Virus record (IMG/VR): IMGVR_UViG_3300029305_009617
Reading direction: 5' to 3' (one strand)
DNA length: 64,000 bases
Origin: an uncultured virus (IMG/VR IMGVR_UViG_3300029305_009617)
Lineage: Duplodnaviria > Heunggongvirae > Uroviricota > Caudoviricetes
Position numbers and translations under genes: made by a program. The number at the start of each line of letters is the position of its first letter. Position 1 is the first letter of the stretch. Below are positions 1,247 through 64,000 of the stretch, piece after piece. The notes under the pieces were generated by a model. The model did not search any database. It saw nothing but the letters and a program-made list of their open reading frames with translations, and was not told the origin of the DNA.

Positions 1247-1281
1247 AATTATTAAGGAAAATGAGAAAAGGAGGTGCCTAT

Positions 1282-3069: not shown

Positions 3070-3070
3070 A

Positions 3071-3823: not shown

Positions 3824-4109
3824 ATTACTCTCGAAAGTATGATATAATGATGAAGGATGGAAAAATATTTCCAGATATGAGGAATAAATAAATTAACGTG
3901 TTATCGAATGAGGAATATTGAATTTACGAATAAGAAATCTTTTTATTTGTTAGTTTATCTTTTATTTGTGCTAGTTTAGTTTGCTTAATTTTCAAATCAT
4001 GCCTTTATCTAAATCATACGGTCGGGGGGGGGTAACCCCTATATAAGTCCAATAGCCCCGCAAGGGGTTAATTACCTATAATTAATTATTTGGAAAAGGA
4101 GTTATTTTT

Positions 4110-4538: not shown

Positions 4539-4564
4539 TTTTTGTTAACCCATAAATTATTTTG

Positions 4565-4596
4565 GAAAGAGTCTCTTAGGAGACTCTTTCTTTTTT
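4565..4596 (+). terminator. Intrinsic terminator after ssb
   Basis: GAAAGAGTCTC-TTAG-GAGACTCTTTC plus T tract. Confidence 0.75.
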
Positions 4597-4615
4597 GTTA
4601 AAAAGGAGGTAATCC

Positions 4616-5844: not shown

Positions 5845-5857
5845 AGGAGGTGTTTTT

Positions 5858-6796: not shown

Positions 6797-6812
6797 AAAG
6801 GAGGTGTCATGT

Positions 6813-7802
6813 TTGGATGCATACGCATTACAAATGGCTATATATGAATTAGATGGACTTCCTATTGACGAATACTTATCTGATAAACCTACATATCAAT
6901 ATGTTGATAAATTGCGGGACATTTTATTAGACAGGGTATTTAAAAAAGATATTGTATATGAAAATGTCTTTCCTGGGAACCGTTCTTCAAATATAGCAAA
7001 TTCCATTCGAGAATGGTTTGATGATAGAAAATTTTGGAATGTTGGTTGGCTAAACCTTTCTGCAGAATGTGGTATCGATGCATGGAATAATCATTCTGGA
7101 TTTACCTATGATATTACAGACTTTGCATTGATTTGCTTAGTATCCTGTCATTCTGGAGAAGATATCATATCTTTAACGGAAGACTCATTTTCTTCCTTGC
7201 TTCCAGAAATTTATGAAATGTATTTTTGGGAAGATGAATATTATGAAGAAGAAGACCGGGAAGATTTTTATGCTGAACTTAGTAATGATTGTATGGAATT
7301 TATTGAAGAAATGCAGTCTTGCTTTACTGTAACTGATTGGAAAGTAGTGCGCAGTTCAGGCTTAGTTCTTTTAAAAGACTTTTCGAAATATATTTTTTGT
7401 GACACACTTACTCCCGAAGAGGTTTTTGAAAACATTCAACCTATTGCAGATTTTTGTTTTGGAGGTCTTGATGGGATTGATAGAACACTCTATACCTTTG
7501 TAAATCAGCATCTTAATGTTATATTACGAAATGAAAAAAGGTTTTTAGATAACGCAGGTTTTAAAGAATTAAAAGAACTTTTAGCATTACTAGAAAGGCC
7601 GATTTACGATGATAATGTGGGTTTTGAGCCAATTGTCGTTTCTAATAAGGAATATTACTCAATCACTGTAGTAGAAACAGACAAGTCGAATATATACAAC
7701 TCACGTCCATTTTTAGGTCAGATGCTGGATAGAATTGATGAATTAACACTATCGCTTGTCTCTTTGCTTCCTGCAGAACTGCTGCCAGTCTCGTCTAATT
7801 AA
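6813..7802 (+). CDS. Acidic hypothetical protein
   Basis: TTG start 8 nt after GGAGG. Confidence 0.65.
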   Translation: MDAYALQMAIYELDGLPIDEYLSDKPTYQYVDKLRDILLDRVFKKDIVYENVFPGNRSSNIANSIREWFDDRKFWNVGWLNLSAECGIDAWNNHSGFTYDITDFALICLVSCHSGEDIISLTEDSFSSLLPEIYEMYFWEDEYYEEEDREDFYAELSNDCMEFIEEMQSCFTVTDWKVVRSSGLVLLKDFSKYIFCDTLTPEEVFENIQPIADFCFGGLDGIDRTLYTFVNQHLNVILRNEKRFLDNAGFKELKELLALLERPIYDDNVGFEPIVVSNKEYYSITVVETDKSNIYNSRPFLGQMLDRIDELTLSLVSLLPAELLPVSSN

Positions 7803-14807: not shown

Positions 14808-15560
14808 ATGAAACAGTTAGTGGATTTTTTTAAGAAACCTGATGAATCGACATATAGAGGAGTTATCTATCAACCACCTGTAGAAAGAATGAATAAAAAG
14901 GATATAACCTTTTTTGATGCCTTATTTATGGGGATTCCAGTAGAAGTTAATAATGGCCTAAAAATTATAGATAACACTATCTGGGAAAAGGTTGTATCTG
15001 TATTTTCCCATAAAGAAATACATGATTTAACCTTTAAAAAGATACTCTTTACTAATGTAATATTTGAAGGGATTTCTTTTACAGGGTGCATTTTTGAAAA
15101 CTGTCAAATTCAAGCCGACTGGATTGATGGACAATTTGATAACTGTACCTTTAAAAGCTGCAGCTTTGCTAATTTTGGCATTCGAATGTGGCGCGCTAAT
15201 AAATCACAATTTAAGGATTGTTCCTTTGAAGAATCTACTGTTGAATGTGACATGAAAGATGTATATTTTGAGAAGTGCTGTTTCCATAAAGCAACTATCT
15301 ATACATCTATGATTAGAGATTCCTCTTTTAATGACTGCGATTTTTCGTTTTCCTATTTAAGAAAGAATCTCTTTCATAAATCTAAATTGACAGCTCCTAA
15401 TTTTTTAGGAGCCACCATCAATGGAACTCGTTTTGCTTCATCGGAAATTACCGATGCTAATTACGAGAATATTTACATTACCATGGGTGGTGCAACACAT
15501 GATGAAATTGCTCATCTTAAACATCAGATTCTTAAAGCATTTACCCCAGCTTTAAATTGA
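14808..15560 (+). CDS. Pentapeptide-repeat protein
   Basis: Repeated F(E/D/K)xCxF pentapeptides. Confidence 0.85.
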   Translation: MKQLVDFFKKPDESTYRGVIYQPPVERMNKKDITFFDALFMGIPVEVNNGLKIIDNTIWEKVVSVFSHKEIHDLTFKKILFTNVIFEGISFTGCIFENCQIQADWIDGQFDNCTFKSCSFANFGIRMWRANKSQFKDCSFEESTVECDMKDVYFEKCCFHKATIYTSMIRDSSFNDCDFSFSYLRKNLFHKSKLTAPNFLGATINGTRFASSEITDANYENIYITMGGATHDEIAHLKHQILKAFTPALN

Positions 15561-29651: not shown

Positions 29652-29694
29652 GGTGTGTACTTAGTCTTGACTAAGTACACACCTTTCTTTTTTT
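29652..29694 (+). terminator. Intrinsic terminator
   Basis: GGTGTGTACTTAGTC/GACTAAGTACACACC perfect stem plus T tract. Confidence 0.85.
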
Positions 29695-29695
29695 G

Positions 29696-29724
29696 TTGAT
29701 TTTTATATGTACAATTATGATAAT
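29696..29724 (+). promoter_or_regulatory. Promoter P1 of the ATATGTACAATT family
   Basis: TTGATT-tttATATGTACAATTat-GATAAT, 17 bp spacer. Confidence 0.65.
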
Positions 29725-29745
29725 AAAAGTATGGAGGATTTTTAT

Positions 29746-30996
29746 ATGGGAGAACAATTAGTAAAAACCGGATATATGAGAGTAGTGCGTACTAATAATA
29801 TACAATATATTTCTTTCAAAGAATTTCTAACATACGCCGACTCTACACGTCAATTTTTTAAATCAAAATACGATGCAGGAGAAATATCCGTTTATTGTGC
29901 CTGCTCATCTAATAATGATCTAGAGCTATCTATAACTGAAAATGGTGTAGTACGTGTAAAATCAAATCATCAACAAGAAAAGCATCTGCCGGCTTGTCCA
30001 AAATCAAAATATTATCAAAATTGGCTAAACAAGCATAAAAATGGTAATTTTTTGGTGGATGAAAAGGGGTCTGTGATTTTCAACATAACAATACCAAGTA
30101 TTTTTAAAAATACCTCTACCGGTAGTAGTAATAGTAGTGAAAGTTCCGATTCTTCTTTAGCTCATACTACCTTACTTTCAATGATTGCCACTCTGAATGC
30201 TATTGCTTGGGAAAAGCAGACCTATAGTAAGAAAAAAGAAATTGCTTTAGAAAATAAAGAGGGTCGGCCACATACATGGACATATAAAAATCGTGCCGAT
30301 TTTATACGTCTTATTTTTGGTGTGTCTAATGATATATTAGTAAAAAATGGAAAGAATATTTTTTCTTTCTATGAACTATGTTATCGCAAGGATATTTATT
30401 ATTCATGTGACGATTATAAAAGACGTTTTTTTATATATGCGCAAGTATCTAAAATATCTGAATTTAAAGAAGACCGCAAATATCAGTATGTCACGTTGGA
30501 AATGCCTTCTGACAAATCAAATAAAACAACTGTCCGTATTAAGACTGAAGTATATCTTGATATGATTGAAAATATAGATGTGGAAAATATAACTGATTAT
30601 ATTTTAGCTGGTTATGTGCACCGCAATCTCTTTGAAAATAGTGATTGGATGACTTTTATAAAAGGGTCTTTTTGTTTGGTATCTAATAATGGACTCTATT
30701 CAGAAAACGATTATGTTGCTAGCGTTTTTGATTATTTTTCTGAAATGCAAGTTATTTTTAAAAGATGTTATCAGCCCGTTTCTTGCTACGGAGAATGTAT
30801 ACCTACCATGATAGTCGAAAATATCCGAGGGAAGAGTGTCTTAATTGATTTTGTTGGTACAAAACAAATGCGAAGCAAGCGCTCCGCATTTGTTAAAAAT
30901 AATCCTGAATATAATATTATTATTTCACTGTATGAAGAATTTACGCCTGAAGAATTATATATTATGGTGAAAAAATTACTCCGGGTTGAATATTAA
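29746..30996 (+). CDS. Hypothetical protein with an N-terminal CxC..HxxxC metal-binding motif (DUF1173-like)
   Basis: YCAC...HLPACP; ATG after GGAGG. Confidence 0.55.
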   Translation: MGEQLVKTGYMRVVRTNNIQYISFKEFLTYADSTRQFFKSKYDAGEISVYCACSSNNDLELSITENGVVRVKSNHQQEKHLPACPKSKYYQNWLNKHKNGNFLVDEKGSVIFNITIPSIFKNTSTGSSNSSESSDSSLAHTTLLSMIATLNAIAWEKQTYSKKKEIALENKEGRPHTWTYKNRADFIRLIFGVSNDILVKNGKNIFSFYELCYRKDIYYSCDDYKRRFFIYAQVSKISEFKEDRKYQYVTLEMPSDKSNKTTVRIKTEVYLDMIENIDVENITDYILAGYVHRNLFENSDWMTFIKGSFCLVSNNGLYSENDYVASVFDYFSEMQVIFKRCYQPVSCYGECIPTMIVENIRGKSVLIDFVGTKQMRSKRSAFVKNNPEYNIIISLYEEFTPEELYIMVKKLLRVEY

Positions 30997-31268
30997 GCCG
31001 TTATCAGGTCTGATAACTTGATATCCTCATAGAACATCTCAACATTTGCAACCTTTCTTGTTGAGAACATTTTCTGGCCTTTTGAATTCAAAATGCAGGA
31101 TTCGTTGCTGTTGAGAATAATAGGAACCCTACGACAATTGTTTTCATTACCTTCTTTTAAAAAACTCTGCAGCTTTGTCATCAAATCCGGCAAGGATTCA
31201 CCGCATGCAGCATATAATTTGTAATTCTTTTTACTATATTTTTCATATCGTGACATTGCATTAGACAT
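30993..31268 (-). CDS. Small hypothetical protein
   Basis: AAGGAGG RBS before MSNAM. Confidence 0.6.
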   Translation of the reverse strand: MSNAMSRYEKYSKKNYKLYAACGESLPDLMTKLQSFLKEGNENNCRRVPIILNSNESCILNSKGQKMFSTRKVANVEMFYEDIKLSDLITA

Positions 31269-31468
31269 TTTGGTTACCTCCTTGTCATCGTGTAGAACAT
31301 TTGTTCTTTTTCTTAAAATATCATTTTTTTTTAATTCTGTCAACAATAAAATATTTTCAATATAACTATTCGTTAAATTATTCTTTTGCGAATAGTTGAT
31401 TATATGTCATTTTTGTTTTATTCATTATCTTCTCTATGCAACTTATCATAGTGACGGTTGAACTATAG

Positions 31469-31583
31469 ATGGCACTTATATTGAAGTATTTAGTATTTTA
31501 ATGGCACTTATATATAATTCTCGATGATTTTTTTGAAGAATACTTGGCACTAATAAATTATAAGTGCCAAGTATTCTTCAAAA
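31469..31583. repeat. Four TGGCACT boxes including a perfect 21 bp inverted repeat
   Basis: ATGGCACTTATA at 31469 and 31501; IR arms 31531-31551 and 31563-31583. Confidence 0.85.
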
Positions 31584-31683
31584 TTTTCAATTTAATATAC
31601 TAAAAATTTACCCTTGTATAGTTTCGAGACAAAAAATCGTATATATACTTGACTCATGTACGAATGATGGATATAATATAATT

Positions 31684-32076
31684 ATGAAAAAAGGTATTCT
31701 TAAACAGGTTACAACTACATATATATGTTATTATATTGCCTTCTGCCCTAGATATAAACGTAAAATATTCATTATACCGGGAATGGCTGAACGTGTAGAA
31801 GCACTCTCTTTGGAATTTTGTCAGCAGAAGCAACTGACTTTATTAGACATACACTTTTCCGAAGATACTGTATTTTTGCAAATATTAAGTGTTCCTGAAT
31901 TTAGTCCTAATGCGATTATTTATAAATTGAAAATGTACTTGTCTTCGTTCCTTTTGAATGAATTTGATGAGATCCGGAATATGCCAAATCTTTGGACTAA
32001 GGCTTATTATGTTTCAACCACAGGCTTTGATGCTGATATGTTGGAAGTATTTATTAACTCACAAAGGAAAAAATAG
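31684..32076 (+). CDS. IS200/IS605 TnpA (Y1) homolog lacking the HUH motif and catalytic Tyr
   Basis: FCPRYKRKIF and LWTKAYYVST retained; EDTVFL replaces PDHVHL; VFINSQ replaces YIENQ. Confidence 0.8.
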   Translation: MKKGILKQVTTTYICYYIAFCPRYKRKIFIIPGMAERVEALSLEFCQQKQLTLLDIHFSEDTVFLQILSVPEFSPNAIIYKLKMYLSSFLLNEFDEIRNMPNLWTKAYYVSTTGFDADMLEVFINSQRKK

Positions 32077-34237: not shown

Positions 34238-35188
34238 TTACGCCATTTGTTTTTCATATATAGATTTTATCTGATAATTCACTAAATCTGCAGGACATCC
34301 TTGCAGTGTATTCTTAACTTCGAAAAATTGTCTTGTCCTTAACGTTCCTAGCCCAAGATAATCTTGTACTGTTTGCTCTGTTGCACCGGCGCCGATCATT
34401 TCTAAAATTGCTCTAGCACGCATGTCCTTTAATCCATAATTTCTTTCCAGTCCAGCTTTTTTACAAATAGAAGCAATATTATCGTCCAGATTTTTTAATG
34501 TAAGTTTGTGTTTGTACTTATTATAAAACAAATTACCTTCCTCGTCTGTATATGTCAGAGTCTCAAGATAATTCATGAGTAATAATTCCACATCCTTTGG
34601 TAAAATAATGGACAAGCTTTTGTTAGGATTTTGTGAGTCTGGAAAGAAAATACCTACTCTTCCATTTTCCTTAAATAATGAATTTTTTTTGATTTGTAGA
34701 ATTTTTGTAGCGGACAATCCTACTCTTGTCGCAATAGAGATAATTAAATAATACATTGGCTTCTCTTTCGCGGTGGAAAGGATTGCATCCAATTCTTCTA
34801 ATGCTGGAATATTAGCAAGCGTAACTTTATCATTAATCGCTGGCCTAATAATTTTAGTAAAAGGATTTTTGAAGCCTAATTCCGGATATGTATTTTCAAT
34901 GTATTTTGATACTGTATTGTAACAGGATAATCTAACGCAGATTGTTTTCTTTGAAAGGGTTCCTTCACCACACATAGAATACATTCGATTGAATGCATTC
35001 GCTGCATCCGCCTCTGTAATTTCTAAAAAATCTTTTCTACAAAACCGGTTACAGAGAATGCCTATATATCTTGTATATTCTGTTCTTGTTCGTGCGTTTC
35101 CCTTTTTGCTTGCAAAGGTTAATAAGATTTCATTTTTAAAATATTCGCTCATATAATCTATGTTTTCTGTTCCATTTAACTCCGGCAT
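34238..35188 (-). CDS. Tyrosine recombinase (Xer/integrase) fold protein with degenerate catalytic residues
   Basis: NPF linker; VGLSATKILQI; LKDMR; VQDYLGL...RQF. Confidence 0.75.
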   Translation of the reverse strand: MPELNGTENIDYMSEYFKNEILLTFASKKGNARTRTEYTRYIGILCNRFCRKDFLEITEADAANAFNRMYSMCGEGTLSKKTICVRLSCYNTVSKYIENTYPELGFKNPFTKIIRPAINDKVTLANIPALEELDAILSTAKEKPMYYLIISIATRVGLSATKILQIKKNSLFKENGRVGIFFPDSQNPNKSLSIILPKDVELLLMNYLETLTYTDEEGNLFYNKYKHKLTLKNLDDNIASICKKAGLERNYGLKDMRARAILEMIGAGATEQTVQDYLGLGTLRTRQFFEVKNTLQGCPADLVNYQIKSIYEKQMA

Positions 35189-35205
35189 TCGAATATGACT
35201 CCTTT

Positions 35206-35679
35206 CTATAATCGTAATGAACGTTCTTTCTTTATCAACGTAAGTGGTATTAATATAATGCATGCAATAATAATAAACTTATTCCCGTAGTCTGCTACCC
35301 CTGAATATACTCTATGCATATTTATTAAGATTAAATATATTTGAAGTATGATACATATGTTGCTAAAATACTTGGTTGCTTTTCTAGCTTGATTTATCAT
35401 ATATAAGTTGCCTTCATTATTTTTCAAAGCATTCTTGTATATATCAAGTAAATATTGTATTTCCAGTTCCTTGTCTCCTGGTAAAGCAATTTCAATAATT
35501 TTCCCTTTACCTCGACGGTATGTTGCTATTTTGATTCTATATTTTCTACCTTTTAGATACATAATTCCTTGGTATATATTTTTGTGGAATCCTTTCTGAA
35601 TTATTTTTTCAAGCATAACACCTCCTCCCAATGCCTCAATATCTTTTTCATATATTACCATATTTTTATCAAATAACAT
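35206..35679 (-). CDS. Hypothetical protein with C-terminal TM segments
   Basis: GGAGG RBS; hydrophobic C-terminus. Confidence 0.55.
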   Translation of the reverse strand: MLFDKNMVIYEKDIEALGGGVMLEKIIQKGFHKNIYQGIMYLKGRKYRIKIATYRRGKGKIIEIALPGDKELEIQYLLDIYKNALKNNEGNLYMINQARKATKYFSNICIILQIYLILINMHRVYSGVADYGNKFIIIACIILIPLTLIKKERSLRL

Positions 35680-35841
35680 GTGACCTCCTAGTGAACATTT
35701 GTTCTGTTTTATCATAGCATATTTTTCTACCTATTTCAATGTTTCATCAATTGTTCTTATATAATTTTTATTGATTATATGTGTTTTTTATTAAAAATTA
35801 GAATAAATGATTAAAAATTGAAAATTTGATAGTAAGGTTGT

Positions 35842-35870
35842 TTGCCTTTCATATGTACAATTCGCATAAT
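35842..35870 (+). promoter_or_regulatory. Promoter P2 of the ATATGTACAATT family
   Basis: TTGCCT-ttcATATGTACAATTcg-CATAAT, 17 bp spacer. Confidence 0.7.
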
Positions 35871-35897
35871 TAAAATTAGATAAGGAGATGTAATATT

Positions 35898-37967
35898 ATG
35901 GTAAAAAGAACGCCTGGGTATCCCTGTTGCCCGTATATAGTAAAGAAAATTCAATCTGAAGAAGAGTTATGGTATTATATTAAAGTTTTTACATCAACAT
36001 GTATAGAGCGTAATGTAGAACCTAATATCATTGTGGATGATTTAATTGCCACATTATCTTGTTTATCTCATGAAGCCAATGTTGCAAGACCGGATATATC
36101 GTCTCTTGGACGAACAGCAGCGGATATTTGTGATTCTATTATTACACGAACAGATATCCCTCCTTTTCATAGTTGTACAACTCTTTACAAAAAAATTGAC
36201 TCTACTCTCGCTGGATGTAGACTATGTCCTTACAGTTCAGCCTATCAGAATGCAAATGAAAAAAATGAAGTAGCATTATTTCGATATTTATTAGAAAATG
36301 AGTCGAATTTTGATTATGTTACAGAATTATTTCCGAGAGAATACTTTACTTCCTGTATGGATGTATCGATGGGTATACCTGTAAGAAAAGCTCATTTTTT
36401 TCCTATGCTTAATATCCTACTTACATCTATGTTGAAACCTAATATAAGATTTCTTTTATTTACTTCTTTGGATACTTCCTTTATTGGACAAGAAGCTACA
36501 GCTTTTGATTTGGCATGTGAAGATGCATTCCAGACATTTCCATCAAGAAGGAAAGTTGCTGCAGATTTAAAGAGAAATCCTATGTGGCAAGCGGCATTAA
36601 AATCACAAATAAAAACAATGATTAATTCTGCTCCTATGCTCACAAAAGAAGACGTCCGAAAACTTTTTGATATTATGATAGCTGAGCAGACAAAAGATAC
36701 TTCTAAAGAAGGAATATCTCAGCAAATACAACCAATATCAGTTTTTGATGTAAATGAGATTGTTCCTTCTGAGTCCTCTGAAAAAGAGAGCTTATCTGGG
36801 GAAAATAGTAGGTGTAATGAAGGGGAAAAAATCTCTGTAGAACCTAAGTGTAATTCCGATAGTTTGAATCATGCATCCTCAAAGGACACTTCGACAGATA
36901 TTCCGGAAGAGGGAGTGAATACTTTTTCGTCTGATTGTAAAAAGGAAGATAATATTACTGTTTCTCCGGAAGAATTGGATACATCTGTCTACTTTTTTAC
37001 AGATGATGTCATTTTACATGTGAAACTAACACAAGAACTACTTTTAACAAAAAAAATTATAACCTTAGAAAAAGGTCAAGAATTACCTGCTGCTTTTTAT
37101 CATGGAACTTTGCGGGATTTAACACTATCTATAGAAGTAGTGACGGATATGAACGGAGACTATTCTTATCTTATTTGGAGTAGACATTTAGGAAAATTTA
37201 TATGTTGTAAAATAACAGATGCTCATCCATTATTAACGTCGTTATTAACTCGGGCTAAAGTTAAAAAAATCTGCCATACTCCATACTTGTTGTATGCAGC
37301 TTCTAAATTGAACAATATTGCTTTGAAAAATGTTTTTTCTATTCATACAGCTCATAATTGTCTTATAAAAAATAAGAGGGTATTATCCTATAAAGATTTG
37401 ATTAAATCGTATCCTACAATAAAGCCGTATGGTTATATTATTGATGAATCACTGACTGATAATGTTTGCCCTGTATTAAGTGGTATGCCTCTATATAGAC
37501 CTATACATAAGCTATTAAATGATTTGCTGGATAAGAACCATGAACCACATATACTGCTTTCTCAAATGTATATAGACGAAGCTTTTGCAACTTCTTATCT
37601 ATATGCATTGAACTTTGATTTAGATGGTTATGTTTTTTATTTGTCAAAAAACAACGAAATTGTCTTTAATAATAGCTTTATATCTAAAAGCAAGTTTAAT
37701 GGCCAAAAATTAAGCTATTATGCAAGTGAGGGCAATGAATCATGTCGTGGGGTGTTTTTGTATATTCTTGAAAAATTGTCCGAAAAAGGGATTTTTAGAA
37801 AGCAACGTATTCAGATTGTAAATATGAATAACTCTATTTTGGAATTATTCGTGAGTACAGAAATCGCAGATTATATATGTTCTGTTATTGAGCTGCTTAT
37901 TTTTTCATATGGGAAAAATTACACTCAAAATGGACTGCAGCTGGAATGTATTAAAGTAACTATATAA
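35898..37967 (+). CDS. Large protein: Cys-cluster (primase large-subunit-like) N-terminus plus degenerate PolA-type 3'-5' exonuclease-like region
   Basis: PCCPYI, PFHSCTTL, CRLCPY; KKICH...LKNVFSIHTAHNCL. Confidence 0.45.
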   Translation: MVKRTPGYPCCPYIVKKIQSEEELWYYIKVFTSTCIERNVEPNIIVDDLIATLSCLSHEANVARPDISSLGRTAADICDSIITRTDIPPFHSCTTLYKKIDSTLAGCRLCPYSSAYQNANEKNEVALFRYLLENESNFDYVTELFPREYFTSCMDVSMGIPVRKAHFFPMLNILLTSMLKPNIRFLLFTSLDTSFIGQEATAFDLACEDAFQTFPSRRKVAADLKRNPMWQAALKSQIKTMINSAPMLTKEDVRKLFDIMIAEQTKDTSKEGISQQIQPISVFDVNEIVPSESSEKESLSGENSRCNEGEKISVEPKCNSDSLNHASSKDTSTDIPEEGVNTFSSDCKKEDNITVSPEELDTSVYFFTDDVILHVKLTQELLLTKKIITLEKGQELPAAFYHGTLRDLTLSIEVVTDMNGDYSYLIWSRHLGKFICCKITDAHPLLTSLLTRAKVKKICHTPYLLYAASKLNNIALKNVFSIHTAHNCLIKNKRVLSYKDLIKSYPTIKPYGYIIDESLTDNVCPVLSGMPLYRPIHKLLNDLLDKNHEPHILLSQMYIDEAFATSYLYALNFDLDGYVFYLSKNNEIVFNNSFISKSKFNGQKLSYYASEGNESCRGVFLYILEKLSEKGIFRKQRIQIVNMNNSILELFVSTEIADYICSVIELLIFSYGKNYTQNGLQLECIKVTI

Positions 37968-37987
37968 ATTTAATGAGGAATATGATA

Positions 37988-38596
37988 ATGAAAATTGATG
38001 AACTTATATTAAAGCCTGAAGTACAGGTTTTAATGAATATGGAATATATCGCACACCCTGAGGTTTTTATACATTCAGTAAGGGTTGCACATATTACAGA
38101 AAAATTGATTGAGCGTCTTCCAGTAAATGCTAATATGGAAGATGTATTAGTGGGGGCTCTTCTTCATGATGTTGGTAAATTATATATACCCTTTAATTTA
38201 AATACATCTCCTAATCGATTTACAACTGTGGATCGTATGATTATGAACTCTCATACGTCTGCTGGACTAAAAATCGTAGACGGTATTTTTCCTAAGGTTG
38301 TATCAAATATTGTTTATATGCATCATGAGAAGGAAAATGGCTCTGGGTATCCTTTAAAATTAAAATCTGAGGATATTCCTGACTATGTCAAAGCGGTAGT
38401 GGTTGCGGATATGTATGAAGCTCTTACTGCGAAACGCACCTATAAAAAACCTTACTCTCATCAAACCGCACTTGATAAATTACATCGGGACTTTGTTGAA
38501 CCTAACTATGTACATGAACTTGAATATTTTGGTGATTGTATATTAAATGAGCTTGATAGATGTTATACTTTTAAACGTTTAGACATGGCACTATAA
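37988..38596 (+). CDS. Stand-alone HD-GYP phosphodiesterase
   Basis: HSVRVA, LHDVGK, HHEKENGSGYP, ADMYEALT..RTYK. Confidence 0.9.
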   Translation: MKIDELILKPEVQVLMNMEYIAHPEVFIHSVRVAHITEKLIERLPVNANMEDVLVGALLHDVGKLYIPFNLNTSPNRFTTVDRMIMNSHTSAGLKIVDGIFPKVVSNIVYMHHEKENGSGYPLKLKSEDIPDYVKAVVVADMYEALTAKRTYKKPYSHQTALDKLHRDFVEPNYVHELEYFGDCILNELDRCYTFKRLDMAL

Positions 38597-38640
38597 AATA
38601 ATAGAAAGGTCAGAAAAATTTGACCTTTCTATTATTTTTT
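38595..38640 (+). terminator. Intrinsic (possibly bidirectional) terminator
   Basis: AAAATAATAGAAAGGTCA/TGACCTTTCTATTATTTT. Confidence 0.75.
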
Positions 38641-38982
38641 ATTTTAAATTGCATCGAGATTGTGTCGAGATTGAGCCAAGATTCAGATATTGTAAAATTC
38701 TGGAAAACACGCAGTTTTACTTATTAATCAGAGGCTAGAAAAGCCAGACTATTAGCCTATTTTATAGCCCTAATATTTTTCACTATATTTTCTACATTTG
38801 CCTTTTATCCTGTTGTACTATTTTATTGTTGTCTTTGCAGTTATCACTATTAGTATTCACGTAATTTGTTTAGCCTTCTTGTATTTTATATTTTGGTTTA
38901 AAAACGCTAATGTTAAATTTAATTTTTTAACTTATAAATAAATACAAACATTAAATTTAGCCGTATACAAACCTGCTTAATA

Positions 38983-39858
38983 ATGGCAGGGGGCAAAATA
39001 AAGCTTTTACCTGCTGCCATGTATGGTGTAAATAAATGTCTTATACAACAATACTTATTTCCATACTTTTCTTCTTGTATAAGCCACACATGGTAAATAA
39101 GCACTTCTATATTCTCTACTATAATAAAAAGTCACCGGCAGCAGGCCTTTCAACTTCATCTATGTATGCCTGCTGCCTTTTTAATATTTATTCATGTCAT
39201 CTTCTAGCCCGTGGCTGAAGCCACGCCACGGGCAATCTACTCTTACTTGCTGCGTATATTTTTGTATCATACGTATCTTCTCCGGCAACGCCGGACCCAA
39301 CTAGCGTAGGGGCAAAATTTACCTTTTTATTGCTATGTAAATGCCTAACGGCATTCTTTACGCTAATTTATTTTATTATTTACTATTTTACTTCTGGTAT
39401 ATATGCTTAACCTCTTATATAAAAATACCTACTTACACACCAAGCCCGTGGCTAAAGCCATGCCACGGGCAATCTACTCTTACTTACATATAAAGCATAT
39501 CTCTTGCCTAGTAACTATTATCTAGTTGTAACTATATATTTTTTACGGCGGCAGTAGGCCTTACGTATTCATTTATGTATGCCTGCTGCCTTTGTAGCAC
39601 TCATGTGTTTATATCTGTATAATCCTGTTCTAGCCCGTGGCTAAAGCCACGCCACGGGCAATCTACTCTTACTTGCTGCGTAACAAGTGGTTTCCTGTAT
39701 ACGTATAAGTACTTCACCGTTTGTTTTCTTTTCCTCTTATTTGTTGAATTAAAAATGCTAATGCATTTTAATATTTTCATTTTTTCACCGGCAGCAGGCC
39801 TTGTATATACTACTAAAATATAATTGCCCATGACAGGACTTTTGTCATGGGCAATCTG
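38983..39858. repeat. Cluster of two interleaved GC-rich palindrome families in non-coding DNA
   Basis: GCCCGTGGC..GCCACGGGC-AATCTACTCTTAC at 39207, 39444, 39633, variant at 39823; GGCAGCAGGC..GCCTGCTGCC at 38985, 39137, 39550, half-site at 39790. Confidence 0.9.
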
Positions 39859-39930
39859 CTTTTAATCGTTATAAGTGTAATTACTATTTAAAAATATTAC
39901 TTATAAACTCCATTGGTATTCACTTTAATA

Positions 39931-41079
39931 TCAATACGGCCAGGTATAACCTCTTGGCTTAACATTTGCATATTTAATAAATATTTCTGCTATTGTTTGT
40001 TGCGTGGCATGCAAATTATTAAACATTTTTTCAAAGCTATTGTTATTAAGGCAAATAGTAAGGTCTAGTGAATGCTCTTTAATAATATCTTCTATATCCT
40101 CAGCATTCATGATATTCATATAAGATTCTTTTTCTCTATTGGCTATATGTACAAAAGCTTTATTGTATTCCTTTTCTAACATTCCCGAAAAAACCGAGTA
40201 TTTATGTAATGCCTCTTCATAAGTTCCTAAGTCGGTACAACGACAGTGGATATTGTATACCGTAGTATCTCCTTCAATAAATGTTGGATATATCATTTGT
40301 AAAAACTGTAACTGATTAATATCTTTATTATTATCTAATATAACCGTCCACGTACAAGAAATCAAATGGATATTCTGTAACTCATCAAAAGAATCGAAGA
40401 ATAACAAAATACCGTTATGATTTACATCTGTGTTTTTCACACCACAGCAGGTATAGTAAAAATGATTCGGATAAACATGTCTGTTTTTGTATTTTGGAAC
40501 AGATATAACTTGTCCATTTTTATTAATGATATTAATTTCTGCTTCTTTTACTACTCCATTGGAGTAATCCCAGTAAAAATCAAATGATAGCCATAAGATG
40601 ATTTTTTTACTATTGCCAGGAAACTTCGTTTTTAACTGCTCCTGAAATTTGGAAGTTCTCTTATTTTCTATGTCATCCTTGCATTTATCAATACCCTGAT
40701 GTTCTCGTACATATTTATAATCCGGATCTGCGGAATAAATATCAAATTCCGCACCAGCTTCTTTTATTTTTTCTATTTTTGTTATGTATTTTATTATAAT
40801 ATCTTTTCTATTTGATTTATCTTTCCATACGGTTTTTCCTTTTGAAAGAATCCAAAAGCGGTGTTTAGATATCTGTAATACAGTACCCTCATAACTTTCA
40901 ACCGTTCCGCTACTCCACTTCTGTTCTACCCGAATTTTATCTCCAGATTTTATTTTCATACCCGCTATCTGTTTTTTTATATATTCTTCATATCCGATTT
41001 CTCCCCATACCGGCTTTTTTTCTGGATGCAGCTTGCACCCGTTCTTGAAATAATTTTGCAATGATTCATAATATTTCAT
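39931..41079 (-). CDS. Hypothetical protein
   Basis: 382 aa ORF with AAGGA RBS. Confidence 0.65.
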   Translation of the reverse strand: MKYYESLQNYFKNGCKLHPEKKPVWGEIGYEEYIKKQIAGMKIKSGDKIRVEQKWSSGTVESYEGTVLQISKHRFWILSKGKTVWKDKSNRKDIIIKYITKIEKIKEAGAEFDIYSADPDYKYVREHQGIDKCKDDIENKRTSKFQEQLKTKFPGNSKKIILWLSFDFYWDYSNGVVKEAEINIINKNGQVISVPKYKNRHVYPNHFYYTCCGVKNTDVNHNGILLFFDSFDELQNIHLISCTWTVILDNNKDINQLQFLQMIYPTFIEGDTTVYNIHCRCTDLGTYEEALHKYSVFSGMLEKEYNKAFVHIANREKESYMNIMNAEDIEDIIKEHSLDLTICLNNNSFEKMFNNLHATQQTIAEIFIKYANVKPRGYTWPY

Positions 41080-41186
41080 TATTTATTCCTTTCTCCTGGC
41101 ATAACTAATATGTGAGCGCTATACGTTATGCCTTATTTAATATTTATTCATTTTTAGAATCAACTCTGTGACAAATGTGCGAATCT

Positions 41187-41522
41187 TTAATTTCTATTTT
41201 CATTACACATTTTAATCTTTTTCTTTGCTAAACATATGCTTTCGCTTATAAGTGGAGGCACAACCATTATAATAAACCCTATATAAAAGAACTTTTTACT
41301 ATTTGTTATATAGCTCATAGCATAAAGAATAAGTCCACAGGTTAGTGCTAAGTTAAAAACAGACACACGAATCAATGCTCTGAATGCATAGTGGTATCCC
41401 TTTAAAACAAATATGAGTGCCATACTTGATATTGTAAGAAGCAGCCATTCTGTGATTCCATATTTTGTAGTCAATAACCCAAATGCTATTTTTAAGCAAT
41501 ATAGTACTTCTGTATTTTTCAT
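41187..41522 (-). CDS. Membrane protein
   Basis: Several hydrophobic segments. Confidence 0.6.
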   Translation of the reverse strand: MKNTEVLYCLKIAFGLLTTKYGITEWLLLTISSMALIFVLKGYHYAFRALIRVSVFNLALTCGLILYAMSYITNSKKFFYIGFIIMVVPPLISESICLAKKKIKMCNENRN

Positions 41523-41609
41523 AAGATTTCCCCCTGGTATACTCTATAAATTGTTATGCCTTTTTCATATTACAGTCTGCCTTTTACCGGCAGCAGGCTT
41601 ATATATTCT

Positions 41610-42422
41610 CTATAAATTATTAGTGATAAATTTCTTGTACAATTCTTCAATATTCAATCCGAAATGCTGCTTAGAGTATGCGTCCAACCGGTAGCAGTAA
41701 TCTCCATACAATTGTCTAACAGAGTCATGTTGAGCGCGAAATGTCTTTTCGCTTATATCTCCAACCTCTGTATGTTCATGCAAATACCTAGACGCACAGA
41801 TAAACATGTCGTGAAGAATACTATATTCTTCACATAAGGCATTCTGTTTGCTATAATCCGCAGAACTGTCCTGTGGTAATTCTGCAATGAATGCATGAAT
41901 AACAGTTCTTAGTTCCCTTGTTAATGCGAATGAATGGTCCGCATCTGTTCCAAGAAGTTCAACCTTAACAGATTTTAAGATTGGATAAAATAGATTACTT
42001 TTGCCTTCTGCTTCTTCATTGTTACATCTCGGATTACTGCTGATATGTATATCATAATAATTTTCTATAGTCTGAACCAGCTGTCTTAGTATTCTGTAAT
42101 CATTTAAGCAATCGGAAAATTCTTTGATATCCGTACTGCGTTTCTCAATATAGGCAGTAATCATACATATAATGTAGATGTTTTCAGCAATCGAAGACTG
42201 AAATTCGTAAAAATAAAAATCCGAGTCCGTAATAATCAATTGATTTAACCATTTTTTGAATGATAAAGTTTTTGGTATTAATCCGTTTCTAAAAGAAATA
42301 TCGTCCGTGGCTATAGGTAATGTAAAAACTTCCTTATAATTCATTTCGGGCGTAGAACAATCTTCCTTTATAATACAAGGTGCTGTATCTCTGTTTTTAT
42401 ATGTCTTTTTCTTTTTTCGCAT
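41610..42422 (-). CDS. Hypothetical protein, paralogous to the C-terminus of 43377-44744
   Basis: Shared IAExIYIxCMxxAYIxxRxxDIxEF motif. Confidence 0.7.
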   Translation of the reverse strand: MRKKKKTYKNRDTAPCIIKEDCSTPEMNYKEVFTLPIATDDISFRNGLIPKTLSFKKWLNQLIITDSDFYFYEFQSSIAENIYIICMITAYIEKRSTDIKEFSDCLNDYRILRQLVQTIENYYDIHISSNPRCNNEEAEGKSNLFYPILKSVKVELLGTDADHSFALTRELRTVIHAFIAELPQDSSADYSKQNALCEEYSILHDMFICASRYLHEHTEVGDISEKTFRAQHDSVRQLYGDYCYRLDAYSKQHFGLNIEELYKKFITNNL

Positions 42423-42504
42423 AATAACCTCTCTTTATATATATGGTATTTTATTCGTATATATAGATAAACCTTAATGCAGGGCTGAAAAAATAACTGC
42501 CAAA

Positions 42505-42693
42505 TTACCACTCTAACCGTATATCAATCAATGTTTTTATAAAATTCCAATCCCTATAATCATTTGTATAACCATGGAACTCGTCCTGCACGGAGCCATC
42601 CTTTGCTTTCCTTACCGCTTTATACTCTGCTTCATTCCAGTTTTCCCTATCTGTTTCTATATAAATTTCATATTCTCTGTATTCGCTTACCAT
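42505..42693 (-). CDS. Small hypothetical protein
   Basis: AAGGAG RBS. Confidence 0.55.
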   Translation of the reverse strand: MVSEYREYEIYIETDRENWNEAEYKAVRKAKDGSVQDEFHGYTNDYRDWNFIKTLIDIRLEW

Positions 42694-42730
42694 TTACTAT
42701 TTTCTCCTTTTCTATATATCAAGGATAAGA

Positions 42731-43153
42731 TTATACTTTTCGATTCCAATACTTCTTATCATTAAAATAACTCATTTGTATTTTGTATGATTTTGCTATA
42801 CCGCTTTCAGGTTCTCTATGAATTAGACTTAAAATATCCGACACATGAATCTGCATTACATTTAGTATCTGCTCATCTATCTGTTTATTTACTATCGCAT
42901 CAGGGTAATTTATAGTAATTACCTCTAAAATTCTTTTTTGCATATCCACAGGAGCAGAATATTTATGCTGATATTCCTGGTATAGCGACCAAATGACCGT
43001 TTCGTTGATAATTTTTCCATAATCCGGATAGGTACTCTTTGCTTTGTCTGCCTTTTGTGCAGAACTAAGACCGGATAAAATCTGATTCATTCTATTTTTA
43101 TTAAAGATAGTTACTTTCCGGTTACACAACGGACATATTATTTTAGTAAACAT
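42731..43153 (-). CDS. Hypothetical protein with N-terminal CPLC
   Basis: AAGGAG RBS. Confidence 0.6.
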   Translation of the reverse strand: MFTKIICPLCNRKVTIFNKNRMNQILSGLSSAQKADKAKSTYPDYGKIINETVIWSLYQEYQHKYSAPVDMQKRILEVITINYPDAIVNKQIDEQILNVMQIHVSDILSLIHREPESGIAKSYKIQMSYFNDKKYWNRKV

Positions 43154-43253
43154 CGCATTCTCCTTTTAAGCTTATATTTTACCAATCATATATAGTTAAT
43201 GAACAGGTACTGCTAGTGTCCTTAATGACATCAGCTCTGTTCTCTTTATTTTT

Positions 43254-43283
43254 ATTATTGTGAATTGTACATATGAAAGGCAA
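43254..43283 (-). promoter_or_regulatory. Promoter P3 of the ATATGTACAATT family
   Basis: TTGCCT-ttcATATGTACAATTcac-AATAAT on the - strand. Confidence 0.65.
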
Positions 43284-43376
43284 TACAATTCTTTTATTTT
43301 TTTCTTATTGTAAACTGGTGCAAATATTTAGGTGGCAGATGCTTTATGCCTGCTGCCACCTAAATATACCGGATAA

Positions 43377-44744
43377 TTACATATCCGCAATTATTTTATT
43401 GATATTATTCCTCAATTCCCTTACGTACTCGAAGTTTTTATCTGTTTCTGGGTATAGGAATTTCTTTTTAATAGATAATAGATCCTTTGCAATATCTAAA
43501 ATTTCATCATTATTATTTATATACTCTTTATTAATGTTGTTTGGTATATTATAATGCTCTTCAATGGACTGGATACGAGAATTTAATTCCTCGTAATTAT
43601 TGATGCATTTTGCGAATTCATATATGTCCGAATTTCGATTATTTATATAGGCTGCCGTCATGCAGACGATGTAAATTTTTTCTGCAATATAAGTCTGCAT
43701 ATCTTTAAAAAAAGGCTCTTGAGACTTTAAGATTGGCTCAATCCATCTGTTAAATTTATATATTTTAAAAAGCATGTCTATTTTAAATTCACTATCACTG
43801 GAAGCCTCCGGCACTGTAAATAGCTCCTCGTATTCGTTTTCCGAAACAGGACTACTTGTCGAACTATCGGCTGGACAAGCCTTTACCTTTCTTTCAGCCA
43901 AGGGATTGATGTTGTCTTCTGTAAAAAACTCTTCTCTAATCGAGTCTCTATCACCTTTAATACCCTTTACCTGTTTGCATCTGGCAGTAAGAGGCTGTAA
44001 CTCTATTGCCAAGTAGGATATGTCATTATCCCTTAAAATTTCCACCGTATGGTTATACTCTTTTGAATCTAAGGCAATACAGTTTAAGGCACTGTCTCTA
44101 TTTATAGAAATACTCTGTGGCTCTATAATACAATTTAGATAATCGTGGGCTTTTTCCAATAATTCACCTGCCGTGTATACTCCATCCGAAGAGCTGGATA
44201 CAATAATTTCTACCCGCTCATCTTTATTGAGGGTGTTAAGATAATCTCTTAATCTCAATGGTCTGGTGGAGTCTGTAAAATCCTTTATTATGACTCTGGT
44301 TACCGTGGTGAATATATAGGTCGCAAACAAGAACTCTAAAAAATTAATCATCACACCATCGTAGAAAATTTCTGGCTTCTGTAATGCAAAGTAATACATG
44401 ATTCCATAAAATACAGCCGCTGTAATAATGCGGACAATCAGTAATGGGAACCTCTTAAGTCCTGTTAAATCCGTATTTCTGGTTTCTAAAAAAATATCAC
44501 ATATAGGAACCAAGATAAAGAAAATTACGGCCAGTTCTAATGAGGATATGAAAAATGTATTTTGGGCACCTAAAATAGCCTCGATAGAAAACATATCTCC
44601 GGCACTAATATCTTTTTGCATAGATAAAATAGCAAGTAAAAAGATAAGGAGCGAACATACAATGGTCATTCCGCAGTAAAGAATGGTGGATGTGGCAATA
44701 TAAAGTCCCCTTATTAATGGCAGCATTCGTGTTGATAATTTCAT
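43377..44744 (-). CDS. Membrane protein (about 4 N-terminal TMs) with a soluble C-terminal domain
   Basis: Hydrophobic N-terminus; AGGAGG RBS. Confidence 0.7.
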   Translation of the reverse strand: MKLSTRMLPLIRGLYIATSTILYCGMTIVCSLLIFLLAILSMQKDISAGDMFSIEAILGAQNTFFISSLELAVIFFILVPICDIFLETRNTDLTGLKRFPLLIVRIITAAVFYGIMYYFALQKPEIFYDGVMINFLEFLFATYIFTTVTRVIIKDFTDSTRPLRLRDYLNTLNKDERVEIIVSSSSDGVYTAGELLEKAHDYLNCIIEPQSISINRDSALNCIALDSKEYNHTVEILRDNDISYLAIELQPLTARCKQVKGIKGDRDSIREEFFTEDNINPLAERKVKACPADSSTSSPVSENEYEELFTVPEASSDSEFKIDMLFKIYKFNRWIEPILKSQEPFFKDMQTYIAEKIYIVCMTAAYINNRNSDIYEFAKCINNYEELNSRIQSIEEHYNIPNNINKEYINNNDEILDIAKDLLSIKKKFLYPETDKNFEYVRELRNNINKIIADM

Positions 44745-44855
44745 GATATACCTCCTATGTACATATAATTGTTGCGGCTACGCTTTTTACCAGATAAATA
44801 TCTGAATAAATGATTTTACTCGGCAGCAGGCAACTACTTTTCATCTATATTTATT

Positions 44856-44884
44856 ATTATGTGAATTGTACATATGAAAGGCTA
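44856..44884 (-). promoter_or_regulatory. Promoter P4 of the ATATGTACAATT family
   Basis: TAGCCT-ttcATATGTACAATTca-CATAAT on the - strand. Confidence 0.65.
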
Positions 44885-44994
44885 CTTTTTTACTACATAT
44901 AACTGTTTATATAAGAATATACACCTATCTATATAGTCTTCTTTCGTTCAAAATACACATTGTATTAGATACAAAAGAGTGATATAATACAAAT

Positions 44995-45423
44995 ATGAAT
45001 AAGAATAAAACATATAAATCCAATAACAATATTATCCATTCCTGCAGGTACTGTGTTGTATGGTGCCCGAAATACAGACGGAAAGTATTAACAGGCGGTG
45101 TAGATAATCGGTTGAAAGAATTACTAATTCAATATGCTGCAGATATTTCTGTAACCATTCTGGAAATAGAAATAATGCCGGAACATGTTCATTTGCTGAT
45201 AGAAGTGAATCCACAGTTTGGTATTCACAAAGCCGTTAAAGCTTTAAAAGGCTACACGTCCAACATTTTAAGGCAGGAATTTCCGCACCTTCAGTCGAAA
45301 ATGCCTTCTCTTTGGACGAACAGCTACTTCGTTTCTACAATCGGTGATACTTCACCAGAGGAAATTAGACAGTATTTGGAAAATCAGAAAACATCTCAAA
45401 GACAAAAGGACAAGTTAGGATAG
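44995..45423 (+). mobile_element. tnpA: IS200/IS605-family transposase TnpA, intact motifs, no adjacent tnpB
   Basis: VVWCPKYRRKVL, MPEHVHLL, LWTNSYFVST, QYLENQ. Confidence 0.92.
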
Positions 45424-59267: not shown

Positions 59268-59339
59268 TTGGGCTAATCGGATTTGAACCGATGAATGCAG
59301 CAGTCAAAGTGCTGTGCCTTTCCGCTTGGCGATAGCCCA
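59268..59339 (-). tRNA. tRNA-Gln (anticodon TTG)
   Basis: Cloverleaf: TGGGCTA/TAGCCCA acceptor, GCC/GGC D arm, CAGCA-CTTTGAC-TGCTG, ATCGG-TTCAAAT-CCGAT. Confidence 0.95.
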
Positions 59340-62440: not shown

Positions 62441-63181
62441 TATTTTTTTCATGTTGCTCGTAAGTACAACGACCTTAATGGGTTTAGGACCAGCCTAAAT
62501 ACTATCTCAATCCACGCTGCCCTTACGGACAGCGACCAGCAGGAGATAGATTTTTCCAAATACATAGTAATTTCAATTCACACTGCCCTTGCGGACAGTG
62601 ATGCAACATCTTTATTATCCGGATTGTACATACGAATTTCAATCCACACCGCCCTTGCGGGCAGTGACATTTCTGCATATACTACCATCTACCCCAAATG
62701 ATGATTTCAATCCACACTGCCCTTGCGGGCAGTGACTTTAGAGTTCAAACTACGCCCTACATAGTAATTATTTCAATCCACACCGCCCTTGCGGGCAGTG
62801 ACCAAGGCAATAGAAAATGAAAACAAAAGAATTATTATTTCAATCCACACTGTCTTTGCGGACAGTGACTGTACAATTCAGATGATATAAATTAAGGGAG
62901 CCATTTCAATCCACACCGCCCCTGTGGGCAGTGACACGCGTGTTCATAGCATTAAGTGTTGTGAAATAATTTCAATCCACACTGCCCTTGCGGGCAGTGA
63001 CTAATAGGTTCCGGACCTGGACCAACCCAGATGCGATTTCAATCCACACTGCCCTTGCGGGCAGTGACGCAATACCGCATTTTATATTACGCTCCAAATT
63101 AATTATTTCAATCCACACCGCCCTTGCGGGCAATGACGCAGCTGAGTGAATTATTTAAAACTGACGAGGATATTTCAATCC
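62441..63181 (-). CRISPR. Type I-C CRISPR array: 10 full 33 bp repeats, a 10 nt partial first repeat and a degenerate trailer repeat; 11 spacers of 30-36 nt
   Basis: Consensus GTCACTGCCCGCAAGGGC(A/G)GTGTGGATTGAAAT; + strand starts 62504, 62570, 62636, 62704, 62770, 62837, 62903, 62969, 63036, 63105; partial 63172-63181; degenerate 62441-62473. Confidence 0.97.
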
Positions 63182-63199
63182 TTCTTCCCTATAATCCAT
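63182..63199 (-). pseudogene. Probable 5' remnant of cas4 (MDYREE)
   Basis: ATG overlapping the cas7 end reads MDYREE then runs into the partial repeat. Confidence 0.45.
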
Positions 63200-64000
63200 T
63201 GCATTCTGTCACCTTAAGTCCATCCAGAGTGCTTAATTCAATGTTGTAGTCCTCTACATACTTTGGTTCATCGCAGTTCGGAGTAATGCGTAATGAACGA
63301 TGTACTTCCGCTGTTGAATACTGGCCAGTTTTATTGTTATGCTCCCACCATATTACATCTACCACTTCCATACTTCCTTCCGGACGAGCAGAGCTTGAAT
63401 CTCCAACGAATAAGGTTCTTAATGCTTCCCTTATCTTTTCTGCATCTTCTTCCATAAATCCGGTTTTTTCAGCCAGCTGTGGGCTGATGCTTCCTTTTAC
63501 CACATACATGGCAGTACTTACACGATGCTTCATACCCATGGTATCTGATGCCCTGCCTGCTTTATCCTCGCCATTTACGGATTTTGTAATCTGGATACTT
63601 TCTACATCTACCGGAAGAACACTGAAAGCCGGATGAATAGACACCGGACCTCTTACTCCGATAGAAACTTCATTTCCCTTAAATGCAAATACCTGTCCAA
63701 ATGCACGGACATCCATCCATTCCCTGCAAGCCGCTTCTGAAAAAGCTTTTTCATTTTTGTTTTTCTGAGCTGCTTCTAATTCCTTATTGTTCTTAGCACG
63801 TTCTGCAAGGCTTCTGTATCCATCGTCGCAAAACTCATTGCTCTGAACGAAGATTTTTTCACCCATAGCCTGCAATCGGTTTCTGATTTTTCTCTTAATA
63901 CATACATCTGAAATTTCACCATATCCGTCGTAGGTGGTTCTTGGGCGGTTTTCATTTAACGGATCACCGTTAGGGTTTGCATTGTTTACCATAATTACTG
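63189..64000 (-). CDS. cas7: Type I-C Cas7/Csd2; 5' end outside the window
   Basis: NANPNGDP..NRPR, SDVCIKRKIRN, DVRAFGQV, VRGPV, TMGMK, SSARP. Confidence 0.95.
   Translation of the reverse strand, partial: VIMVNNANPNGDPLNENRPRTTYDGYGEISDVCIKRKIRNRLQAMGEKIFVQSNEFCDDGYRSLAERAKNNKELEAAQKNKNEKAFSEAACREWMDVRAFGQVFAFKGNEVSIGVRGPVSIHPAFSVLPVDVESIQITKSVNGEDKAGRASDTMGMKHRVSTAMYVVKGSISPQLAEKTGFMEEDAEKIREALRTLFVGDSSSARPEGSMEVVDVIWWEHNNKTGQYSTAEVHRSLRITPNCDEPKYVEDYNIELSTLDGLKVTECNGL

Follow-up and report, generated by a model that had tools for sequence, protein, structure and literature searches.

Two spacers of a type I-C CRISPR array on a gut mobile element carry the promoter motif of their own carrier

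When a CRISPR array holds spacers that resemble promoters of the very element carrying it, one has to ask what such guides are aimed at. The question is raised here by a stretch of 64,000 nucleotides from an uncultured virus assigned to the Caudoviricetes (IMG/VR record IMGVR_UViG_3300029305_009617), which is called the window below. Near its right end, a CRISPR array (62504..63137, minus strand), made up of ten complete repeats of 33 nt with 9 intervening spacers 33-36 nt long, lies beside cas7c (csd2) of type I-C (63189..63998, minus strand), a gene recognized by profile matches, the 5′ end of which falls beyond the window edge. The initial annotation, made from the letters alone, held that two of the spacers, S2 (62603..62635) and S6 (62870..62902), belong to the element's own promoter family, and that the array either attacks related elements through these conserved promoters or regulates the element's own regulon.

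Both spacers were recovered at these positions with the sequences that had been described. In the sense of its CRISPR RNA (crRNA), the 33-nt S2 on the minus strand contains TGTACAAT (minus strand 62623-62630), followed 3 nt later by the -10-like hexamer GATAAT. S6, also 33 nt long, reads on the plus strand, antisense to its crRNA, as TGTACAAT (62870-62877), 3 nt, GATGAT and then AAGGGAG, which resembles a ribosome-binding site. The pattern TGTACAAT-N4-ATRAT is present in both spacers, and its other matches in the window are only three intergenic promoter-like sites.

The promoter family comprises four intergenic sites that share 33-37 nt, each preceding a gene in the same orientation. The copies, named here by position, are 29708 (29696..29728, plus strand; TTGATT-17-GATAAT with TGTACAAT between the hexamers), upstream of the open reading frame (ORF) 29770-30996; 35854 (35842..35878, plus strand; TTGCCT-17-CATAAT), upstream of ORF 35898-37967 and an HD-GYP gene; 43271 (43247..43283, minus strand), upstream of ORF 42731-43153; and 44872 (44848..44882, minus strand), upstream of ORF 43377-44744. 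Their anatomy, with TTGCCT or TTGATT as the -35-like hexamer, TGTACAAT within a spacing of 17-18 nt, and CATAAT, GATAAT or AATAAT as the -10-like hexamer, suggests that they function as promoters, and three of the four copies pass a simple sigma-70 scan. A terminator-like hairpin (29652-29683) stands just ahead of the 29708 copy. The genes behind these putative promoters have no assigned function, except for an HD-GYP-type phosphodiesterase and a DUF1173-like lead. Atlas yielded leads only, namely a DUF1173-like signal of 0.95 for a 408-aa protein and nothing usable for a 455-aa protein.

Could the motif have come into two spacers by chance? When at most one mismatch is allowed, TGTACAATNNNNATRAT matches the window five times (three promoters, S2 and S6) against 0.76 matches expected. 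Outside the array, 102 of 124,908 33-mers in the window bear the motif, which gives a probability of 3×10−5 for its occurrence in at least two of ten spacers taken from a genome resembling the window. If the source is restricted to the promoter-dense 29-46 kb stretch, the probability becomes 4×10−4. None of 404 control spacers from 17 other I-C arrays of gut Clostridia carries the motif. Chance does not explain the motif in S2 and S6. The Hamming scores of the two spacers are weak, since the 23/33 of S2 is reached by 2% of shuffles and the 22/33 of S6 by 27.5%; what counts as signal is the motif that both have in register, not overall identity.

The joint alignment of the four promoters and two spacers places S2 and S6 within the family. 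TGTACAAT and A-T-x-A-T are invariant across all six sequences. Over the same columns, spacers and promoters are identical at 20-26 of 33-34 positions and promoters among themselves at 17-27 of 33-34. Because the former values fall within the range of the latter, S2 and S6 are, judged by sequence, two further and distinct members of the promoter family and not decayed copies, and the four visible copies are not their sources. The two spacers share just 19 of 28 overlapping positions (counted manually on the alignment), which argues for their derivation from two different promoters. Their description as independent family members in opposite orientations is thus borne out.

What kind of target the array recognizes is indicated by S8 (34 nt; 63002..63035, minus strand), the sole spacer with a protospacer found. 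When IMG/VR was searched with N at every sixth position of S8, one contig was matched (1906-1939), which represents a 44-kb provirus with a completeness rating of 93%. Its protospacer is identical to S8 at 31 of 34 positions, with mismatches at 12, 30 and 31, and is preceded by TTC. Positions that are multiples of six are described as unpaired in type I effector complexes (PMC10120712), and two of the three mismatches (12 and 30) are at such positions. The matched site falls in the 3′-terminal part of an 80-aa ORF without assigned function, between a lysis cassette (holin, amidase/endolysin) and ImmA-like and HTH repressor-like genes, in a provirus that contains no copy of the promoter motif. 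In its holin region the provirus is ~65% identical to an Acutalibacter phage, which hints weakly at gut Clostridia as the hosts. The 31/34 match with its TTC fixes both the strand and the protospacer-adjacent motif (PAM) of the array, with TTC as the PAM in this one protospacer case, and indicates an array of the usual kind, directed at invaders. The search of S2 and S6 against phage and plasmid collections that the initial annotation had called for gave no protospacer for either.

Type I complexes require a PAM and seed pairing for target opening, and by this measure the four visible promoters appear to be poor targets of both guides. At the PAM position of S2, the promoters show CTT in three cases and TTT in one (29708), but never TTC; seed position 3 is mismatched at all four, position 2 also at the TTT site, and the total number of mismatches is 10-15. 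The corresponding flanks for S6 are AAA, ATC, CTT and TCT, again without TTC, with 4-6 mismatches in positions 1-8. A TTC PAM is therefore absent, and the seed mismatched, in all eight spacer-promoter combinations. The hand counts made earlier proved exact: S2 matches the 35854 promoter at 23/33 positions, including 19 of the first 22 (mismatches 3, 14 and 17; flank CTT), and S6 matches the 35854 and 44872 promoters at 22/33 each, with mismatches clustered PAM-proximally. In Neisseria, I-C CRISPRi uses both TTC and TTT as PAMs, and I-C Cascade without Cas3 is able to repress a promoter (PMC10865793). Known regulatory cr-like RNAs are reported to retain a canonical PAM and a conserved seed (PMC10120712; 10.1101/2024.10.29.618823). 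Because a TTC PAM is missing and the seed is mismatched at every visible site, self-regulation of the four visible promoters by S2 and S6 is not supported.

The array to which these spacers belong stands next to a standard I-C gene. The Cas7 ORF scores 3.8×10−77 against Pfam Cas_Cas7, 3.9×10−94 against PADLOC Cas7c and 2×10−91 (306 bits, cut-off 182) against NCBIfam TIGR02589 cas_Csd2, thus passing the equivalog cut-off, and it shows up to 62-63% identity to Cas7c of Bacillus plasmids and IMG/VR contigs. The direct repeats at 62504-63137 are spaced 66-69 nt apart. Their consensus, read on the minus strand, which is also the cas7 strand, contains an 8-bp GC-rich hairpin and the 3′ terminus GGATTGAAAT (or its /C variant), a terminus common to arrays beside Cas7c relatives and to Clostridia arrays (repeat identity 27-30/33). 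Seven distinct variants occur among the 10 repeats, whereas in host I-C arrays taken for comparison from gut Clostridia genomes 82/82, 51/52, 36/36 and 35/35 repeats are identical. Across the repeats, 98.2% of hairpin cells are paired, with compensatory change at two pairs. Because the repeats have diverged so far while the hairpin was kept by compensatory changes, the array is read as an old one in which spacer acquisition has ceased and the crRNA structure is still under selection.

The gap separating cas7 from the array contains no cas4, cas1 or cas2 and no leader, and among 81 ORFs scanned in the window, which ends inside cas7, none belongs to the Cas1, Cas2, Cas4, Cas3, Cas5 or Cas8 families. 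Instead, a repeat stub of 10 nt (63172..63181, minus strand), identical to the 3′ handle end of the repeat, begins 7 nt past the cas7 stop, and the 34-nt spacer S10 (63138..63171, minus strand) separates this stub from the first full repeat. In the three nearest relatives of the locus in IMG/VR, with up to 62% identity in Cas7, ~2.2 kb separate cas7 from the start of the array. The stub is probably a deletion scar, left by a loss that took cas4-cas1-cas2 together with the leader and the greater part of the first repeat and fused the array to the end of cas7. Genes for Cas5c, Cas8c and Cas3 would be expected beyond position 64,000, and neither IMG/VR nor the GTDB contigs yielded a copy of the locus. 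The locus is a I-C CRISPR-Cas system borne on a mobile element, with the adaptation module absent within the window.

Several further properties of the array were recorded. The mean spacer GC content is ~0.35, compared with 0.34 for the element. Of the 10 spacers, 4 contain Shine-Dalgarno-like words, where 20% would be expected, and the difference is not significant. The exact repeat has no match in GTDB contigs or in IMG/VR, and Rfam returned nothing at gathering score for the array and the hairpin repeats. The repeat 3′ end TTGAAA forms, together with an AT-rich spacer, a sigma-70-like promoter match in crRNA sense at 4 of 10 spacers (S10, S9, S6 and S2). The leaderless array may perhaps be driven by such TTGAAA-spacer sites or by read-through from cas7.

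We lean, if only a little, toward the view that S2 and S6 are interference spacers taken from promoters of a related, competing element, with the carrier's own copies spared. Under this explanation, both would be ordinary spacers acquired from two different promoters of the family in a competitor living in the same hosts. The loss of the adaptation genes and leader, as seen within the window, would have frozen the guide set, and the array would now be transcribed, probably by read-through from the cas operon. Guides against a regulatory sequence would stay useful because such a target is conserved, multi-copy and present in many relatives, and could be retained for that reason. The four visible promoters of the carrier would be protected by their lack of a TTC PAM and by their mismatched seeds. 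Of the proposal that the array attacks related elements through conserved promoters, what stands is the family membership of the two spacers and the TTC-flanked provirus target of S8; a protospacer of S2 or S6 is the part that did not appear.

The latter point weighs against the competitor explanation, as do several others. Exact searches of IMG/VR gave 0 matches for S2 and 0 for S6. The whole array, compared with INPHARED phages and PLSDB plasmids at E values up to 1, had no match for either spacer, and the 2+2 weak hits were at E 0.2-0.7. A degenerate pattern of the core found 26 loci in JGI metagenome contigs, all of them chance matches (best 24/33 for S2 and 27/33 for S6, of which 21 positions were forced by the pattern), and a family pattern found 46 loci in GTDB species genome contigs, all chance and mostly coding. 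No S2 or S6 target was present in 802 Clostridia genomes (two orders, 401+401; two candidates scored per genome). Relatives carrying the promoter family were not found in INPHARED, PLSDB or IMG/VR, so that the rival element is hypothetical. Furthermore, the enrichment test takes the window as a stand-in for the source genome of S2 and S6, and the motif tested had been noticed partly through the spacers themselves.

Searches for other spacers and for relatives of the element gave a similar picture. The array matched 36 and 21 genomes of the two Clostridia orders; apart from short partial matches of S5, the matches reported fell on other I-C arrays or on isolated repeats. Four of the S5 matches were considered as candidate targets and rejected (three at 26-28/34 and the fourth below 25); they were judged to be chance because they have no TTC PAM and the spacer is of low complexity. 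With N at every sixth position, S4 had 0 matches in IMG/VR, and no spacer other than S8 has a target in the collections and search modes used. The promoter core matched 14 loci in IMG/VR, none in family context. A 25-kb megablast revealed no relative among INPHARED phages or PLSDB plasmids, and the 689-aa protein encoded by ORF 35898-37967 had no match in IMG/VR.

The competitor explanation can be set against known systems. Phage CRISPR arrays are reported to be compact (median 6 repeats), mostly without Cas1/2/4, and to target other phages, and two phages are described whose type I-C variant has neither Cas1 nor Cas2 (Al-Shayeb et al. 2020, PMC7162821). The element array resembles these huge-phage arrays in its compactness (10 repeats), in having no adjoining Cas1, Cas2 or Cas4, in its I-C relationship and in having at least one spacer against another phage. 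It differs from them, as far as they are described there, in that its Cas7 is a standard Csd2 above the equivalog cut-off, that the array abuts cas7 via the stub, that 2 of 10 spacers are from the carrier's own promoter family and that the carrier window lacks structural genes. Viral mini-arrays target related viruses (PMC11656645), and the spacers of the element likewise resemble the carrier genome yet differ enough to spare it, as would be expected if the target is a close relative. Mini-arrays, however, hold 1-2 spacers and borrow host Cas proteins via identical repeats (PMC11656645), whereas the element array travels with a cas gene and its exact repeat was not found in host arrays (GTDB contigs, IMG/VR).

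Two further comparisons concern promoters and silencing. As with CreR, CreA and viral Cracr (PMC10120712; 10.1101/2024.10.29.618823; 10.1101/2023.03.10.532045), it is promoters that the guides of the element resemble, and they are partially complementary to the visible copies. The guides of those systems are described as having a canonical PAM, an intact seed and a short PAM-proximal match, and as belonging to degenerate stand-alone mini-arrays (PMC10120712; 10.1101/2024.10.29.618823), whereas S2 and S6 have neither the PAM nor an intact seed nor such a PAM-proximal match at the visible promoters and are normal spacers of a normal array. With type IV-A3 systems, plasmids silence their rivals by repressing transcription (10.1101/2023.06.23.546257; PMC11656645). 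The element array is similar to them in being borne on a mobile element, in lacking an adaptation module and in its apparent part in inter-element conflict, and promoter targeting would suit silencing. It is dissimilar in that type IV-A3 is another CRISPR type, which works with a DinG helicase (10.1101/2023.06.23.546257; PMC11656645). A keyword search of the open-access literature, which was not exhaustive, returned no description of spacers drawn from the promoter family of their own carrier.

Among the alternatives, two survive best, although both are quite unlikely. In the first, promoters elsewhere in the same element, beyond the 64 kb that are visible, match S2 and S6 perfectly and are repressed by Cascade with or without Cas3, in a programme of the element itself. 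Since the spacers are as near to the four promoters as the promoters are to each other, such copies would be a natural source, and promoter repression by I-C Cascade without Cas3 is documented (PMC10865793). However, where the targets of mobile-element arrays are known, they are reported to be other elements or the host (PMC7162821; PMC11656645), and S8 does likewise. Full 33-nt matches would be cut if Cas3 were present; moreover, S2 and S6 are oppositely oriented to the promoter, and known regulatory guides are described as using short PAM-proximal matches (PMC10120712; 10.1101/2024.10.29.618823).

In the second, which we regard as no more probable, cas7 and the array came as one copied block from the I-C locus of a host immunized against this element family, so that the spacers are directed at the lineage of the carrier itself and its present promoters are escape variants. 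An ordinary I-C Cas7 (up to 62-63% identity), a repeat resembling those of Clostridia arrays at 27-30/33, a stub repeat that looks like a recombination or deletion scar, and promoters that differ from the spacers exactly at PAM and seed would all agree with such a history. Against it, the exact repeat has 0 matches in GTDB contigs and IMG/VR, and 0 of 484 unique host spacers match the window (best 25/34). The compensatory changes in the hairpin also point to continued use on the element.

A conflict between phage and satellite like that of ICP1 and PLE is very unlikely. The promoter family would then belong to an integrated sub-element at ~29.7-45 kb with an integrase, IS200-type transposases and an HTH regulator, and the array would target relatives of this parasite instead of those of the large element. 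All four promoters do lie within 29.7-44.9 kb together with the integrase (34238-35263) and two Y1 transposases, and the GC content of the stretch is slightly lower (0.30-0.34 vs 0.34-0.38 in most other bins). Nevertheless, neither boundaries nor att repeats nor a clean insertion could be recognized there, and the joints of metagenome contigs have a short side of 21-24 nt and are flagged unreliable.

Even less credit can be given to regulation by partial pairing, in which S2 and S6 would guide Cascade to the visible promoters and tune the regulon. The pairing of 19 of the first 22 nt of S2 at 35854 and the TTT flank at 29708, a usable PAM in the N. lactamica I-C system (PMC10865793), would favor it, but a TTC PAM is present at 0 of 8 combinations, S2 position 3 is mismatched at 4 of 4 sites, S6 has its 4-6 mismatches in the first 8 positions, and the regulatory guides described so far have a canonical PAM and conserved seed (PMC10120712; 10.1101/2024.10.29.618823). 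That the spacers were retained as promoters inside the array, S2 in sense and S6 in antisense direction, is the least credible of all: the repeat end and S2 do form TTGAAA-17-GATAAT in crRNA sense (10 of 12 consensus positions), but such matches arise at 4 of the 10 spacers, which marks them as generic to this repeat end when AT-rich spacers adjoin it, the S6 strand has no good -35 hexamer at 16-18 nt, and the opposite orientations suggest no common function.

As to the carrier, the window has a GC content of 34% and encodes replication and repair proteins (clamp-loader subunits, the anaerobic ribonucleotide reductase NrdD, a UvrD-type helicase, a single-stranded DNA-binding protein (SSB) and a Rad52-like protein), together with an E1/E2/JAB set, a Dam-type methylase, an integrase and two IS200-type (Y1) transposases. 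Ten window proteins are PHROG-positive, and most ORFs have no family. Neither structural nor conjugation genes were found in the 64-kb window. Part of the stretch 35500-45400 is present in 10 sequencing runs of 7 studies, all from feces or gut metagenomes. Metagenome contigs were aligned at 80% likeness to a portion of the window outside of which the array lies; contigs from three of those runs include pieces with 0 differences, at a depth of ~3. At 31102-31635 and 35374-35907, contigs pile up to a depth of 15-46 vs ~3 elsewhere, and to 53-75 at 35804. The pile-up is on very AT-rich, low-complexity sequence and may be unspecific or shared with more abundant relatives; the contig joints with a side of 21-24 nt likewise lie in very AT-rich sequence.

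Other features of the window were also observed. Behind the 35854 promoter (35898-38596), the 689-aa protein without family match is followed by a 207-aa HD-domain protein with an HHE...GSGYP stretch, HD-GYP-like, which may represent a cyclic-nucleotide phosphodiesterase encoded by a mobile element. A split Cas3 was considered for the pair and rejected, as the larger protein has no family match and no Walker A was seen on reading, and the smaller one was likewise rejected as a Cas3 HD, being HD-GYP-like with weak Cas3 HD matches (25 bits). The Y1 transposase genes are at 31564-32076 and 44995-45423, one of them divergent from the 44872 promoter. The gene-poor stretch 39136-39869 contains a 60-nt GC-rich hairpin repeat in three copies (39197, 39434 and 39623) and a second hairpin repeat, also in three (39136, 39549 and 39789), with a fourth copy of the latter (44821-44848) right behind the 44872 promoter. 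The hairpin repeats of this stretch have no Rfam match and may be structured RNAs or terminators.

Palindromes of the form GAACATTTGTTC (GAAC-N4-GTTC) occur at 31295-31306 and 35693-35704, directly upstream of the minus-strand genes 30993-31346 and 35206-35715. The Firmicute LexA (Cheo) box has this form, and the two genes may be SOS-controlled. The cluster at 536-7802, with Prok-E2_D, a JAB-domain protein, the Rad52-like protein, SSB and a ThiF/E1-like protein that matches PADLOC E1-E2 models, is a ubiquitin-like conjugation set on the element. A pentapeptide-repeat protein is encoded at 14808-15560 and a tRNA-Gln (UUG) at 59268-59339.

The bias toward promoters is the sole unusual feature of what is otherwise an ordinary mobile-element array, and the case illustrates how a carrier can be spared through PAM and seed differences at homologous sites. 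In a bolder form, which we hold to be unlikely though worth stating, the array would confer RNA-guided superinfection immunity: an adaptation-less I-C Cascade, possibly without Cas3, would use guides from the conserved promoters of its own lineage to shut down or cut the promoter regulon, be it that of incoming relatives or that of unseen copies in the same element. If so, the array would be a programmable counterpart of the phage immunity repressor, with its own promoters protected by PAM and seed changes. Should rivals be attacked through a conserved multi-copy promoter, as in the preferred explanation, the choice of target would itself be a strategy, directed at a sequence that is hard to mutate and common to many relatives, and this would explain the continued usefulness of a frozen array without adaptation genes. 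If Cas3 is absent, the locus would represent a natural type I silencing system directed at promoters.

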